In this document: positions 32,342 through 40,169 of the stretch, piece by piece
Numbering within the stretch: the first letter of the stretch is position 1
How the letters are laid out: each line of letters starts with the position of its first letter
Sequence record: OR996328
DNA: 42,805 nt
Direction: 5' to 3' (one strand)
From: Escherichia phage Shy
Translations under genes and position numbers: made by a program
Notes under the pieces: model-generated
What the model saw: the letters and a program-made list of their open reading frames with translations, nothing else
What the model was told of the DNA's origin: nothing
Database searches by the model: none

Positions 32342-32381
32342 TTCGGCCAATGACCACGCGCAACCGTAAGGAATGCCCACA

Positions 32382-32585
32382 ATGACCCAGCTTGTCACCG
32401 GTTGGCGGGATGAAACCCGGCAACTTCTGTTGAACCGCCCCCGCAACCTTGAATATCAGACCATCGCCAACGAAACCGGTTTGTCTGTTTCGTGGATTCG
32501 TGCGTTCGCGGTAGGCCAGTCGGATAACCCCGGCGTCGTCTTCGTCGAAACCCTTTATGTATATCTGAAAGCAAAGGCCAAGTAA
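32382..32585 (+). CDS. small HTH DNA-binding protein (Cro-like regulator candidate)
   Basis: 67 aa from ATG 32382 (AAGGA RBS); the track's ATG at 32373 abuts the RBS; helix-turn-helix-like YQTIANETGLSVSWIRAF. Confidence 0.4.
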   Translation: MTQLVTGWRDETRQLLLNRPRNLEYQTIANETGLSVSWIRAFAVGQSDNPGVVFVETLYVYLKAKAK

Positions 32586-34891
32586 TGTACCAGAACATAC
32601 CCGAAGAATTGCGGAATACGCCGCATTGGGTAGTTTGGCGTTACGAAGACACGCAAGCCGATAAGCCGACCAAAGTACCGTATTCGCCGCATAATTTCCA
32701 AACGCGGGCGAATGTCAACGAACCGTCAACTTTCGGAACGTTTGAGCAAGCCGCGCAAGCGTGCCAAGACGGATGGTTTAACGGCTTGGGCTTCGTGTTA
32801 ACGCAAAACGACCCGTATTGCTTTATCGACCTTGACGATACGGACGGCGACCCGAAATTGTACGCCGACCAAATCACGATTTACCAACGGCTAGGGTCGT
32901 ATACCGAACTTTCGCCAAGCGGTAAGGGCGTGCATATCATCGTAAAAGGTGCGTTGCCAGCCGGTCGCAAGCGTAACCGTATTGAACTGTATTCGTCCGG
33001 TCGCTTTATGACCATGACGGGTAATTTCCTTAACGGTTCGAACCCGGCTATCGAAGACCGTAACGATATGGTCAACGAACTTTATACCCTGTTGGGCGGT
33101 AAAGAAGAAAAGACATATTACGACGGCAACGAACCACAAACCAAGTCGGACGACGAAGTTATCGAAATCGCACGCAATGCGGAAAACGGCGCGAAGTTTA
33201 TGTCGTTGCATAACGGCGATTGGGTCGGCCTGTATCCGTCGCAATCCGAAGCCGACTTAGCGTATATCAACATTTTGGCGTTTTATACCCAAAACCGCGA
33301 ACAGCTTACCCGGATGTTCAAAGCGTCGCCGTTGGGCGCACGCGACAAACAAACGTCGATTCGTGGCGTCGGTTATATCGACTACATGATTAACAAGTCT
33401 TTCGACCGCATGTTGCCGCCAGTCGATACCGCCGCACTTATGAACCGGCTTAACGAAGCATTGCAACAAAGCCGCGTCGCAGTGCAACAGGAAGCCGCCA
33501 GCGTGCCGACCGCCGAATATATCCCCGAACCCCAAGGCGATACGCCGTACACCGTGCCGCCCGGCCTTATGGGCGAAATCGCGCAATTCATTTACCAGCA
33601 AGCGCCCCGGCCCGTACCGGAAATCGCGCTTACGGCCGCTATTGGCTTGATGGCTGGTATATGTGGGCGTGCGTACAACGTGTCGAATACCGGATTGAAC
33701 CAATACGTTATGTTGTTGGCCCCAACCGGCACCGGTAAAGAAGCAATCGCAAAGGGCATTGAAAAGCTAATGGGACAAGTGCAACGCACCGTGCCAGCGG
33801 CTAACGAATTCATCGGCCCGGCTGAAATCGCATCGGCGCAAGCGTTGGTTAAATATATGTCGAAAGGCCCGACCAGCTTTGTAAGCATCGTCGGCGAAAT
33901 CGGTATCGCATTGCAGCAAATGACCGACCCCCGCGCACCGACGCACCTTGTCGGCTTGCGCCGCCTGTTGCTTGACCTGTTCAACAAGTCCGGCGAAGGT
34001 TCGGTTTTGCGTCCGACCATCTATTCGGATAAAGAAAAGAATACGGCTTCGGTTCTGGCACCGTCTTACACGATGCTAGGCGAATCGACGCCCGAACGCT
34101 TTTACGAATTCCTTGATGAAATGATGATTAGCGAAGGTTTGTTGCCGCGCTTTACCATCATCGAATACCGGGGAAAGCGGCCGTCTATGAACGAAGGCCA
34201 CGCGTTCGTAATGCCGTCGAATGAACTGGTCGAACGTATGGCGCAATTGTGCGCGCAAGCGTTGATGCTGAACAACTCGCATAAAGCGGTGCATATCCGC
34301 GTATCGCCGGAAGCGAAAGAACTGTTCGACGCTTTCAACGAAGAATGCGACAAGCGAATTAACAACGCATCCCGCGAAGTCACGCGCCACCTTTGGAACC
34401 GTGCCCACATTAAGGCCATGAAACTAGCCGGGCTGGTTGCCGTCGGTTGTGACCCGTATAACCCGACCATTGATGCCAGCGCCGCCGCTTGGGCCTTGCG
34501 TATCGTTGAAGCGGATTCGAACAACCTGTTAGGTCGGTTCAATAGCGGCGAAGTCGGCCAGAACAGCAACGAAACCAAACAGCTTAACGAAATGGTACGC
34601 GTGATTCGCGAATACGTCGTTCGGCCTTGGTCGGAAGTGGCGTCGTATGGCGGGTCGGCAATGATGCACGGCGAACGCATTATTCCGTATCCGTACCTTC
34701 AACGTAAATTGGCTAACCTATCCGCTTTCAAAGGCGAACGAATCACGGCATCCGACGTTATCCGACGCACCTTGAAGACGCTTTGCGACCGTGGCGACAT
34801 TGCGGAATTGGGTAAAGGTCAATTGATTGATAAGTTCGGATTCCGTGGCGTTGCGTACATGATTTCGGCACCACGGGCGTTCGGCTTCTAG
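32585..34891 (+). CDS. DNA primase-polymerase (AEP-type N-terminal domain) with C-terminal NTPase-like domain
   Basis: 768 aa; HWVVWRY...KVPY...FIDLDDTDG...GKGVHIIVKG resembles prim-pol domain; degenerate P-loop LLAPTGTGKE downstream. Confidence 0.6.
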   Translation: MYQNIPEELRNTPHWVVWRYEDTQADKPTKVPYSPHNFQTRANVNEPSTFGTFEQAAQACQDGWFNGLGFVLTQNDPYCFIDLDDTDGDPKLYADQITIYQRLGSYTELSPSGKGVHIIVKGALPAGRKRNRIELYSSGRFMTMTGNFLNGSNPAIEDRNDMVNELYTLLGGKEEKTYYDGNEPQTKSDDEVIEIARNAENGAKFMSLHNGDWVGLYPSQSEADLAYINILAFYTQNREQLTRMFKASPLGARDKQTSIRGVGYIDYMINKSFDRMLPPVDTAALMNRLNEALQQSRVAVQQEAASVPTAEYIPEPQGDTPYTVPPGLMGEIAQFIYQQAPRPVPEIALTAAIGLMAGICGRAYNVSNTGLNQYVMLLAPTGTGKEAIAKGIEKLMGQVQRTVPAANEFIGPAEIASAQALVKYMSKGPTSFVSIVGEIGIALQQMTDPRAPTHLVGLRRLLLDLFNKSGEGSVLRPTIYSDKEKNTASVLAPSYTMLGESTPERFYEFLDEMMISEGLLPRFTIIEYRGKRPSMNEGHAFVMPSNELVERMAQLCAQALMLNNSHKAVHIRVSPEAKELFDAFNEECDKRINNASREVTRHLWNRAHIKAMKLAGLVAVGCDPYNPTIDASAAAWALRIVEADSNNLLGRFNSGEVGQNSNETKQLNEMVRVIREYVVRPWSEVASYGGSAMMHGERIIPYPYLQRKLANLSAFKGERITASDVIRRTLKTLCDRGDIAELGKGQLIDKFGFRGVAYMISAPRAFGF

Positions 34892-35160
34892 CTAACCTAT
34901 CCGACGAATCAGTATAAGGGGGCTAAGGCCGCGTATAAGCCCTAACCCCCTGATTTCATTGATGTTATAAGGGTATAAGGGTTATAAGGCGATAAACCTT
35001 CACTTCCCCTTCTATCCCCCAAACCGTCGGATTGGTTATCGGATTCCATACATTCACTAAAATAGGTACTATCCTTATACTCTTTATACTTTTTATATCT
35101 TCAATAAATACAAGGACTTAGGGCTAATCGGAACCCTTAAATTCGTATAAGGCTGGGGCC
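34892..35160. other. putative replication origin: iteron array plus AT-rich tract
   Basis: Six direct copies of GT(T)ATAAGG (34912, 34933, 34964, 34973, 34981, 35145) and one inverted (35072-35080); AT-rich TTATAC-repeat tract at 35051-35110; flanking CTATCCGAYGAA direct repeats. Confidence 0.5.
34964..34989 (+). repeat. tandem triple iteron GTTATAAGG-GTATAAGG-GTTATAAGG
   Basis: Read directly from sequence. Confidence 0.8.
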
Positions 35161-35205
35161 AAGGGGCAAACGACGAACCGATTTGCTATCCGATGAAAAA
35201 TCCGG

Positions 35206-38933: not shown

Positions 38934-39391
38934 TTGAACGTCGGTACGAAGACCTTACCGAATGGGAACGGTTCTACCTGTCGTTGGCCCGCACTGTTCG
39001 CACCAAATCGAAAGACCCTTCGACGAAGGTTGGTGCGTTCATTGCACGGCCGGATAACAGCCCGGTATCGTTCGGTTACAACGGCTTTCCGCGTGGCGTG
39101 GCCGATACTGAATCCCGGCTTAACGACCGGGCGCAGAAGTACCCGCGCACCGTACACGCCGAATTGAACGCTATACTAAACAGCCGCGAATCGCTTGTCG
39201 GTTGTACGCTGTTCGTAACGCCGTTGACGCCGTGCCCGGTTTGCGCCGGGGCCATCATTCAAAGCGGCGTTAAACGCGTTGTCGCTGAATATGTGGGCAA
39301 CCGGCTTGCATACGACGAACACTTAGACATTGCCGTTTCGATGTTCAAAGAAGCGGGCGTTAAACTTATCGTAACAAGGGGCGAAGAATGA
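38930..39391 (+). CDS. dCMP (deoxycytidylate) deaminase
   Basis: 153 aa; zinc-binding signatures HAELNAI and PCPVCAGAI of the cytidine/dCMP deaminase family. Confidence 0.8.
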   Translation: MIERRYEDLTEWERFYLSLARTVRTKSKDPSTKVGAFIARPDNSPVSFGYNGFPRGVADTESRLNDRAQKYPRTVHAELNAILNSRESLVGCTLFVTPLTPCPVCAGAIIQSGVKRVVAEYVGNRLAYDEHLDIAVSMFKEAGVKLIVTRGEE

Positions 39392-39600
39392 ACATTAACG
39401 CAAAGGTTGCCGAACTGAACCGCCGTATCAACGCCGTTAACGAAATGGTTGCCGAAATCGCCGAAGGCGGATACAATGTCGAATATGAAACGATAGACGT
39501 AACGCCTATCGGCCGCACCGAATACCCGGCGTTGCGGGCGGTCGTAACCAAGACCGAAACAATTACCGGTACAGGGGTTGACAATGAAAACGAAAGCTGA
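39388..39600 (+). CDS. hypothetical small protein
   Basis: 70 aa ORF overlapping upstream stop. Confidence 0.4.
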   Translation: MNINAKVAELNRRINAVNEMVAEIAEGGYNVEYETIDVTPIGRTEYPALRAVVTKTETITGTGVDNENES

Positions 39601-39958
39601 AATACTCGCAACAGATTTCGTAATGATTGCCAGCGAAGCAAGCCCAACCGGGCAAGCGTTCGTAATGGCAATCGAAAACGGGGTCGCAAGTCCTAACCCG
39701 GTTATCGCCGAATGCGCGGTCGCACCGGGTTACTACAACCTGTTGGCCGCTAGTCGCGTCATGTTCGGCGCGTTGAACGACCAAACGGTTTGGTTGCAAA
39801 AGCTGTTGGATATGTTGGACGCGCTAGGCCAGCCGGAAGAATCGGATTTGCGTAAGACGCTGGTATCAATGCAAAACGCGGCCATGCTGGCGCAACAGTG
39901 CGCGACGGACGGACTTAACAACGTCGCAACGACGATACTTCGAACCGGCCTTAAATAA
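39584..39958 (+). CDS. hypothetical protein
   Basis: ATG 39584 with AGGGG RBS; the track start at 39578 is TTG. Confidence 0.45.
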   Translation: MKTKAEILATDFVMIASEASPTGQAFVMAIENGVASPNPVIAECAVAPGYYNLLAASRVMFGALNDQTVWLQKLLDMLDALGQPEESDLRKTLVSMQNAAMLAQQCATDGLNNVATTILRTGLK

Positions 39959-39971
39959 AGGAGTGCCCACA

Positions 39972-40169
39972 ATGACCCGGAAACACGTAGCCTATTGCAT
40001 CGGAATCGCCGCCTTGGTTATACTCGCAGGCGTCGCCGGTAACAGCGATTACGAAGAAGCCAAGCGGGAAGCCGAAGCATATTGCGCTAACGTGCATTCG
40101 GGGTTGTGGCCGGATTACAACGGTACTTATGCCGAATACTGCAAAAATGGCGAATACAACGGAAAATAG
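39972..40169 (+). CDS. small secreted/membrane protein
   Basis: 65 aa from ATG 39972 (AAAGGAG RBS); N-terminal hydrophobic segment AYCIGIAALVILAGVAG; 3 Cys. Confidence 0.4.
   Translation: MTRKHVAYCIGIAALVILAGVAGNSDYEEAKREAEAYCANVHSGLWPDYNGTYAEYCKNGEYNGK

Follow-up and report, generated by a model that had tools for sequence, protein, structure and literature searches.

The genome of Escherichia phage Shy (sequence record OR996328; 42,805 nucleotides (nt), referred to here as the window) contains two unrelated small genes, one for a 67-amino-acid (aa) helix-turn-helix (HTH) protein and the other for a 65-aa protein, which start with nearly identical sequence. We conclude that this resemblance is very probably composite: it combines a usual Shine-Dalgarno sequence (SD) at its usual distance, one copy of a dispersed octamer, TGTGGGCA, the ATG, and a Met-Thr(ACC) opening shared by the two proteins. 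The octamer in turn may be the recognition site of the NrS-1-type primase-polymerase encoded by the phage; here we infer both the reader and its priming function, and we hold this assignment tentatively, at somewhat short of an even chance. The full two-part explanation, composite start regions plus a primase-site octamer, seems to us on balance the probable one. The motif itself is the object of interest; we find no support for an initiation element dedicated to, and shared by, the two genes.

The window represents the whole of a circularly permuted genome, beginning at the small terminase gene. It shares 98% identity with ‘Escherichia phage Halfdan’ and 97% with the Juelich variant (genus Lokivirus); its next relative, at ~76% nucleotide identity, is Pseudomonas phage Pavpe01. 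A search with AAGGARTGCCCACAATGACCCRG gave two matches, both on the plus strand (32368-32390, AAGGAATGCCCACAATGACCCAG; 39958-39980, AAGGAGTGCCCACAATGACCCGG) and identical to each other at 21 of 23 positions; with up to three mismatches allowed, these were exactly the two matches in the window, compared with 0.00 in 100 dinucleotide-preserving shuffles. The near-identical initiation regions described by the original prediction are therefore real, its start coordinates being one base low, and its claim that the stretch holds an inverted copy of TGTGGGCA is borne out as well: TGCCCACA, the reverse complement of TGTGGGCA, occupies the SD-ATG spacer of both genes (32374-32381 and 39964-39971, followed by ATGs at 32382 and 39972). 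At the second site the TAA stop of the preceding gene (39956-39958) overlaps the SD of the 65-aa gene.

The rest of the stretch is built from parts that recur throughout this genome. We compared the start regions of the 53 annotated genes of the near-identical Juelich variant: the HTH/65-aa pair ranks top at 21/23, and motif-free pairs score up to 19/23 and 18/23, a consequence of the strong AAGGAG-type SD that recurs at uniform spacing in this genome. AAGGA is present in 12 of these start regions and ATGACC opens four of the genes; the MazG gene begins ATGACCCAA. Once the eight motif bases are removed, the remaining identity is ordinary for this genome; the identity beats chance for random sequence, and its parts are no independent evidence of a shared element. 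The two gene starts are alike because each holds one TGTGGGCA copy, reversed, between ribosome-binding site (RBS) and ATG.

On this composite account, the 8-9-nt SD-ATG spacers of both genes are each filled by a single reverse-orientation copy of TGTGGGCA, and the start codon provides the A/T-rich 5′ flank that the motif favours (CAT directly followed by TGTGGGCA). That flank is weakly specified, with A at −2 in 68% and A or T at −1 in 83% of copies (n=170); CAT, the reverse of the start codon, fits it, as does a TAA stop codon. The two copies would have come to lie in spacers because little unconstrained sequence is available elsewhere in a compact, 96%-coding genome, where few other positions could take up an 8-mer and leave the proteins unaltered, and that both genes begin Met-Thr(ACC) would be a coincidence. 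The junction of SD and motif also forms an in-frame ATG (32373-32375) and an in-frame GTG (39963-39965), three codons before the real starts, and the list of open reading frames (ORFs) starts both genes too early for this reason; as the ATG and GTG abut the SD, real starts there are unlikely, and such motif-made codons mislead ORF callers.

TGTGGGCA is present in 20 copies in the window, compared with 0.69 expected (~30-fold enrichment), 12 on the plus strand and eight on the minus strand (Table 1). Placement was counted on a checked map of 57 window genes, on which one gene start was corrected (35496, not 35508) with negligible effect on the fractions. Fourteen of the 20 copies lie within coding sequence; five lie wholly inside the non-coding 4% of the genome (P = 0.001); six precede a start codon by no more than 35 nt (P = 2e-4), three of them sense and three antisense; and only two occupy an SD-ATG spacer. 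Relative to transcription, ten copies are sense and ten antisense, which indicates that the motif works on DNA rather than through mRNA.

The copies are also more evenly spread than random points, and unequally divided between the strands. The coefficient of variation (CV) of the gaps is 0.47 for all copies in the window (P = 3e-4) and 0.17 for the 12 plus-strand copies, whose gaps measure 2.5-4.5 kb around the circular map (P<1e-5); the gap CV of Pavpe01 is 0.20. Across genomes, the terL-sense strand is the richer in copies in 13 of 13 (173/263, Pavpe01 left out as a close relative; P = 3e-7), and 11 of the 13 show significantly even spacing there. The bias tracks the absolute strand, not the local direction of transcription, as seen in Pseudomonas phage BL5 and in the minus-strand block of the window. 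A strand-biased, evenly spaced, asymmetric word is what is expected of a site read in single-stranded DNA by a processive process.

Comparison with other phages suggests that the octamer is maintained. Of 17 copies that align between the window and Pavpe01, 11 are unchanged, against an 8-mer background of 19% (P = 5e-5), and the copies appear to be under purifying selection; in distant relatives the positions mostly turn over, and each genome still has 12-21 exact copies. We examined ten distinct related phages, and in every one TGTGGGCA is at or close to the head of the ranking of over-represented 8-mers. It comes first in nine of the ten (z 19-45), among them the window, Pavpe01, Kakheti25, KL1, Samson, Kharn, Suba and RcTitan; in Loki it is fourth (z 12.3), after forms that overlap with it, and in Achromobacter phage shaaii_LB5 the overlapping CTGTGGGC scores higher. 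Of 17 uncultured viral contigs retrieved through their primase homologue, a set that includes contigs of 39-42% GC, ten likewise have it as the top 8-mer and two more as the second. The motif-bearing phages infect seven genera of alpha-, beta- and gamma-proteobacteria (Pseudomonas, Burkholderia, Acinetobacter, Xanthomonas, Sphingomonas, Achromobacter and Rhodobacter) and range from 44 to 56% GC; as the same octamer is used over such diverse hosts, the motif is a property of the phage lineage, not of the host. As a separate observation on individual copies, those at 24623 and 27140 of the window face one intermediate copy in Pavpe01, spacing rather than position apparently being maintained.

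We found no description of the octamer or its variants (TGTGGGCA/TGCCCACA, TGTGGTTA/TAACCACA/TGTGGTCA/TGACCACA) in the searchable literature, outside which lie subscription-only papers such as the description of Kakheti25; literature matches to these octamers came from primer lists and the KL1 RBS table only. The papers on Loki, on DLP1/DLP2 and on the Rhodobacter phages, as far as their matching text extends, make no mention of the motif.

The primase-polymerase is the candidate reader for which a biochemically defined counterpart exists. The window protein matches the Pfam families NrS1-1_pol-like_HBD (PF22763, E 4e-7, above the curated cut-off) and DUF3987, and its N-terminal 274 aa match the solved NrS-1 structures 6A9W, 6K9A and 7RR3 (E about 1e-27). 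It is 31% identical to the NrS-1 enzyme over 291 aligned positions, with R, K and Y aligned to NrS-1 R249, K251 and Y261. In vitro, NrS-1 PrimPol recognises 5′-TTTGGTTA-3′ and 5′-GTG(A/G)-3′ in template DNA by means of its helix-bundle domain (HBD); GTGA and GTGG are the most efficient sites, synthesis begins at the first base 5′ of the site, and the related pRN1 ORF904 primase recognises 5′-GTG-3′ (PMC8718748). The window motif reads T-GTGG-GCA and so contains GTGG, and every lineage variant retains TGTGG. In the NrS-1 genome, GTG sites far outnumber TTTGGTTA sites (PMC8718748); we counted TTTGGTTA there once.

Phages with a diverged primase, whose N-terminal region is ~32-36% identical to that of the window, have other octamers as their top 8-mers. 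Seuratvirus slur01 has 37 copies of TGTGGTTA in 50 kb, compared with 2.1 expected, and this word is identical to the NrS-1 site at 7 of 8 positions; Pseudomonas phage BL5 has 29 copies of TGTGGTCA, compared with 1.6 expected; and Vibrio phage 1.117.O has 33 copies of TGTGGTCA and TGTGGCCA together (TGTGG[TC]CA). The motifs of these three Queuovirinae-type genomes show even spacing too, and they favour the terminase-sense strand. Judged from the genomes, the words are members of one apparent family, TGTGG-NNA with a lineage-specific tail. The motif-positive primases form one cluster and share a distinct HBD subtype.

If the primase is the reader, the octamer would be a strand-specific DNA signal for the replication machinery of the phage: the primase HBD would bind 5′-TGTGGGCA-3′ in the single-stranded template, and the primer would start at the base adjoining the 5′ side of the motif. 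The resulting priming sites would occur every 2 kb overall and about every 3.6 kb on the copy-richer strand, and an interval of 2-4 kb would be reasonable for lagging-strand priming. More speculatively, it is quite possible, though less likely than not, that a whole virulent siphovirus clade (Lokivirus, Septimatrevirus, Kilunavirus, Titanvirus, relatives, and Queuovirinae) programs its lagging-strand primer starts through evenly spaced, strand-biased TGTGG-NNA sites; that the specificity of its NrS-1-type primase-polymerase has drifted (GCA, TTA, TCA, CCA); and that the copies at the primase operon and at the 65-aa gene couple the binding of a replication protein to expression.

Several points weigh against the primase as reader. 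The motif co-occurs with a family B polymerase, a clamp, an SF2 helicase, a Cas4-type nuclease, Sak4, SSB and the HTH protein as well as with the primase; the whole replication module is co-inherited, and therefore comparative data cannot single out the primase. The proposal that the motif tracks the primase alone failed in part, as six phages with a primase-polymerase (~27-36% identity), namely Carvaje, BcepB1A, JCL1032, C4.1, Enterococcus 4995_2 and NrS-1, have no strong TGTGG-type octamer; Carvaje has a weak TGTGGTNA only. Two IMG/VR contigs, L014 and L023, whose primases are ~54% and 48% identical to that of the window, contain TGTGGGCA only three times (22 kb) and once (16 kb), respectively, with no obvious replacement octamer. 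If GTG suffices for priming, as reported for NrS-1, selection of the full octamer is unexplained. A Chi-like role or site-specific nicking would fit the statistics equally well. Finally, the SD-motif-ATG arrangement at the 65-aa gene is kept across three genera, which a pure ‘free space’ argument does not predict, and the six copies close before start codons could also reflect a role in gene expression.

The alternative that survives best gives the motif a polar role in some other strand-specific transaction of phage DNA: as a Chi-like regulator of the phage's own helicase and Cas4-type nuclease, as a site of localized single-strand nicks, or as a signal for packaging orientation. The start-region copies would again be bystanders; we consider this alternative unlikely. 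Asymmetry, over-representation, strand bias and even spread are statistical hallmarks of Chi and KOPS, and phages with localized site-specific single-strand nicks exist (T5-like, phiKMV-like and tf). The octamer is asymmetric, strongly over-represented and evenly spaced, and its strand bias is present in 13 of 13 genomes; the annotations of the cultured Halfdan-group phages and of Vibrio 1.117.O include both a helicase and a Cas4-domain exonuclease. However, host Chi, uptake sequences, the DnaA box and other host motifs are ruled out, as the octamer is identical across seven host genera and common to phages of alpha-, beta- and gamma-proteobacteria. No phage Chi reader or nickase is identifiable among the genes, the nuclease domains found being VRR-NUC and Cas4-like, and a polar signal of this kind offers nothing comparable to the match with the biochemically defined NrS-1 sites. 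A weak argument against nicking on both strands comes from Loki, which has two opposite-strand copies 24 nt apart, and yet its digests are normal: the Loki paper reports intact restriction patterns and a single band in pulsed-field gel electrophoresis.

A second alternative takes the octamer as a genome-wide duplex binding site of the 67-aa HTH protein, which would act in the manner of a stoperator or a nucleoid-organising factor, so that the start-region copies would be true operators that shut off the HTH-primase operon and the 65-aa gene; this seems to us rather improbable. It draws on the neighbourhood of the gene: a small DNA-binding gene stands beside the primase gene in every motif-positive cultured phage checked, and the HTH gene is preceded, at a distance of about 30 nt or less, by a same-orientation copy in all cultured Halfdan-group sequences read except Loki, and in two contigs. 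The motif abuts the ATG of the HTH gene only in Halfdan-type genomes; it lies 2 nt further from the ATG, with different codons, in Pavpe01, ~14-25 nt before the likely ATG in Samson, shaaii_LB5 and two viral contigs (by our own reading of the sequences), and 19 and 28 nt upstream in Kakheti25 and KL1, and in Loki it stands near the gene in the opposite orientation. Copies close to the start of the HTH-primase operon are thus widespread, but the 22-nt unit is not conserved there. The enrichment of copies just before start codons (6/20, P = 2e-4) also speaks for operators.

The protein itself, however, does not vary with the motif: the HTH proteins of Kakheti25 and KL1 are only 13-16% identical to that of the window and go with the same TGTGGGCA, whereas that of Vibrio 1.117.O is 32% identical and goes with TGTGG[TC]CA. 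A lone asymmetric 8-mer is unusual for Cro/CI-type dimers, and simple duplex binding leaves the consistent strand bias unexplained. The predominance of intragenic copies (14/20) and their random orientation relative to transcription are unlike stoperators. Neither Halfdan nor the Juelich variant has an annotated integrase or repressor, and therefore no lysogeny is apparent. The HTH protein thus appears a poorer candidate than the primase.

It is less probable still that the shared stretch serves both genes as a dedicated operator of translation or as an RNA processing site, read in mRNA, as the original prediction had proposed. The identity does span the SD, the spacer, the ATG and the first codons, and at the 65-aa gene the arrangement is kept in relatives: SD-TGCCCACA-ATG recurs in Pavpe01 and Kakheti25 and, with a 2-nt offset, in KL1, where the RBS table of the KL1 paper unknowingly lists the motif as the RBS ‘GGGGAtgcccacattATG’ of the 65-aa-gene counterpart; Samson has a one-mismatch copy at this gene and Loki has none. 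The expectation that both initiation regions would be conserved thus holds for the 65-aa gene, where a local effect of the motif is possible, and fails for the HTH gene, where only the 8-mer is kept and the unit breaks up in the nearest other species. Only two of the 20 copies are so placed, and half of all copies are antisense to transcription. The common binding site that the original prediction also envisaged is present in both regions as one copy of the genome-wide motif and is not specific to them. Computed folding of the two start regions gave no stable or shared RNA structure and was no better than for shuffled sequence (z +0.6 and +0.9; energies worse), Rfam gave no match in the window, and the residual identity outside the motif is matched by other start-region pairs. 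The HTH gene heads its operon and the 65-aa gene lies internal to one, and therefore the two start regions stand in different transcriptional contexts.

A recombination scar or module-boundary linker left by phage exchange is highly improbable: the gene upstream of the HTH operon is MazG here and an annotated dUTPase in Pavpe01, but both copies are spanned by homology between the window and Pavpe01 (blastn aligns the two from 32269, upstream of the 32374 copy), the nearest breakpoints are 105 and 144 nt off, and the three Halfdan-type genomes are collinear across both sites. With no folding signal, no Rfam match and breakpoints elsewhere, RNA operator and scar are both unsupported.

Table 1. 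Positions of the shared stretches, the associated genes and promoter match, and all copies of TGTGGGCA in the window
Feature	Position	Strand	Description
Shared 23-nt stretch, copy 1	32368..32390	+	SD AAGGA, A, TGCCCACA, ATG, ACC CAG; HTH-gene start region
Shared 23-nt stretch, copy 2	39958..39980	+	SD AAGGAG, TGCCCACA, ATG, ACC CGG; 65-aa-gene start region
Sigma-70-like promoter match	32313..32341	+	TTTACG-17-TATCAT; upstream of HTH-primase operon; consensus match only
67-aa HTH protein gene	32382..32585	+	first gene of rightward operon; weak HTH-type signature
Primase-polymerase/helicase gene, 768 aa	32585..34891	+	NrS-1-type Prim-Pol and helix-bundle domains, DUF3987 helicase part
65-aa protein gene	39972..40169	+	hydrophobic N-terminal segment; phrog_6168 (function unknown)
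TGTGGGCA copy	1923..1930	-	inside terL; kept in relatives of other genera
TGTGGGCA copy	3607..3614	+	end of portal gene, 13 nt before ATG of next gene
TGTGGGCA copy	7018..7025	+	intergenic
TGTGGGCA copy	9351..9358	-	major tail gene
TGTGGGCA copy	11499..11506	+	coding
TGTGGGCA copy	15272..15279	+	distal tail gene; Pavpe01 counterpart displaced
TGTGGGCA copy	15428..15435	-	distal tail gene; same position in Pavpe01 and Loki
TGTGGGCA copy	17941..17948	+	coding
TGTGGGCA copy	19070..19077	-	near gene end, within 35 nt before next start
TGTGGGCA copy	21390..21397	+	tail fibre gene
TGTGGGCA copy	23442..23449	-	DNA polymerase gene
TGTGGGCA copy	24623..24630	+	DNA polymerase gene, antisense to gene
TGTGGGCA copy	27140..27147	+	helicase gene, antisense to gene
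TGTGGGCA copy	31030..31037	+	intergenic; loop of hairpin, stem altered in relatives
TGTGGGCA copy	32374..32381	-	SD-ATG spacer of HTH gene
TGTGGGCA copy	34402..34409	-	primase gene
TGTGGGCA copy	35475..35482	+	abuts TAA stop of one gene, precedes next SD
TGTGGGCA copy	39292..39299	+	dCMP deaminase gene
TGTGGGCA copy	39964..39971	-	SD-ATG spacer of 65-aa gene
TGTGGGCA copy	42338..42345	+	spanin gene

Some further features of the genes and motif copies may be recorded here. The stop codon of the HTH gene overlaps the ATG of the primase gene (TAATG); if the predicted promoter upstream is real, the 32374 copy would sit in a short 5′ leader. The 67-aa protein matches phrog_6223, a PHROG family annotated ‘transcriptional repressor’ (E 1e-5), and has a sub-threshold Pfam match to the CYNS_N model. 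Its counterpart in RcTitan (32258-32764), annotated as an endonuclease, has an N-terminal extension of ~100 aa and a C-terminal part 53% identical to the window protein; the RcTitan motif count (17) is unchanged. The copy at 31030, upstream of the Sak4 gene, forms the loop of a GC-rich hairpin (window 31008-31058, minus strand) that recurs in four relatives (L002 40238-40290, L004 31884-31936, L005 32424-32478 and L007 32234-32286). The stems differ and pairing is kept (GCCCGG/CCGGGC, GCCCCCGG/CCGGGGGC, TGCCGCCTT/AAGGCGGCA), covariation being weak (3 pairs with double changes among 5 aligned sequences); Samson annotates this hairpin as a terminator. In Loki, the two inverted copies 24 nt apart (9528-9559) make the stem of an annotated rho-independent terminator (TGCCCACATT...AATGTGGGCA). 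We rejected a promoter or terminator element as the identity of the motif, copies occurring within genes and on both strands, and read the hairpin-loop placement as another unconstrained position.

Two observations concern other genomes. NrS-1 has an over-represented word of its own, AGTGTAACC (AGTGTAAC, 11 copies compared with 0.5 expected; GTGTAACC, 8 compared with 0.26), whose reverse complement contains GGTTA, like the published TTTGGTTA site. The recorded hosts of the closest genomes are E. coli MG1655 for Halfdan, Pseudomonas taiwanensis for the 97%-identical variant and P. syringae for the next relative, and the genus of Halfdan is typified by an Acinetobacter phage (records MH362766, PP954860 and PP179316); the host assignment or host range deserves a look.

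Our analysis indicates that near-identical starts of unrelated genes can be a by-product of a genome-wide DNA motif and are then not a regulatory signal. If the octamer is indeed a primase site, it would represent a natural instance of sequence-programmed priming in which specificity variants can be read from genomes; it would provide testable recognition sequences for an enzyme family of biotechnological interest (primer-free DNA synthesis); and it could be annotated as a new feature in a phage group with many therapy candidates against Pseudomonas, Acinetobacter, Burkholderia and Stenotrophomonas.

Among known systems, Chi (GCTGGTGG in E. coli) and KOPS are host-chromosome words read by host enzymes. 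Like them, the window motif is an asymmetric 8-nt word, over-represented and strand-biased genome-wide; unlike them, it belongs to a phage lineage and is constant across three proteobacterial classes. The stoperators of Cluster A and the start-associated sequences of Cluster K mycobacteriophages are almost all intergenic and in fixed orientation relative to transcription. They resemble the window motif as short asymmetric repeats with many copies per genome, some at gene starts or stops, and in that unrelated genes share start regions; they differ from it in placement and orientation (14 of 20 copies intragenic, 10:10) and in that no lysogeny genes are seen in the annotation here. The nicks of T5-like and phiKMV-like phages and of tf likewise follow a short consensus repeated at intervals on a specific strand. 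Their consensus sequences differ from the window motif, and those nicks were demonstrated experimentally, whereas our motif is known from sequence and occurs on both strands, with copies sometimes 24-156 nt apart.

The closest likeness is to NrS-1 PrimPol and pRN1 ORF904: homology of the window primase extends over the Prim-Pol and helix-bundle domains, GTGG is part of the motif, and the slur01 variant TGTGGTTA is one base from TTTGGTTA (7/8). The asymmetry, strand bias and even spacing of the motif fit sites read in a single-stranded template, as they fit other polar signals. We found no genome-wide programmed set of primase-polymerase sites in the searchable literature. For NrS-1 and pRN1, the sites come from in vitro work with foreign or synthetic templates; here, in contrast, the octamer is a genomic one, ~30-fold enriched, evenly spaced and kept across phage genera.

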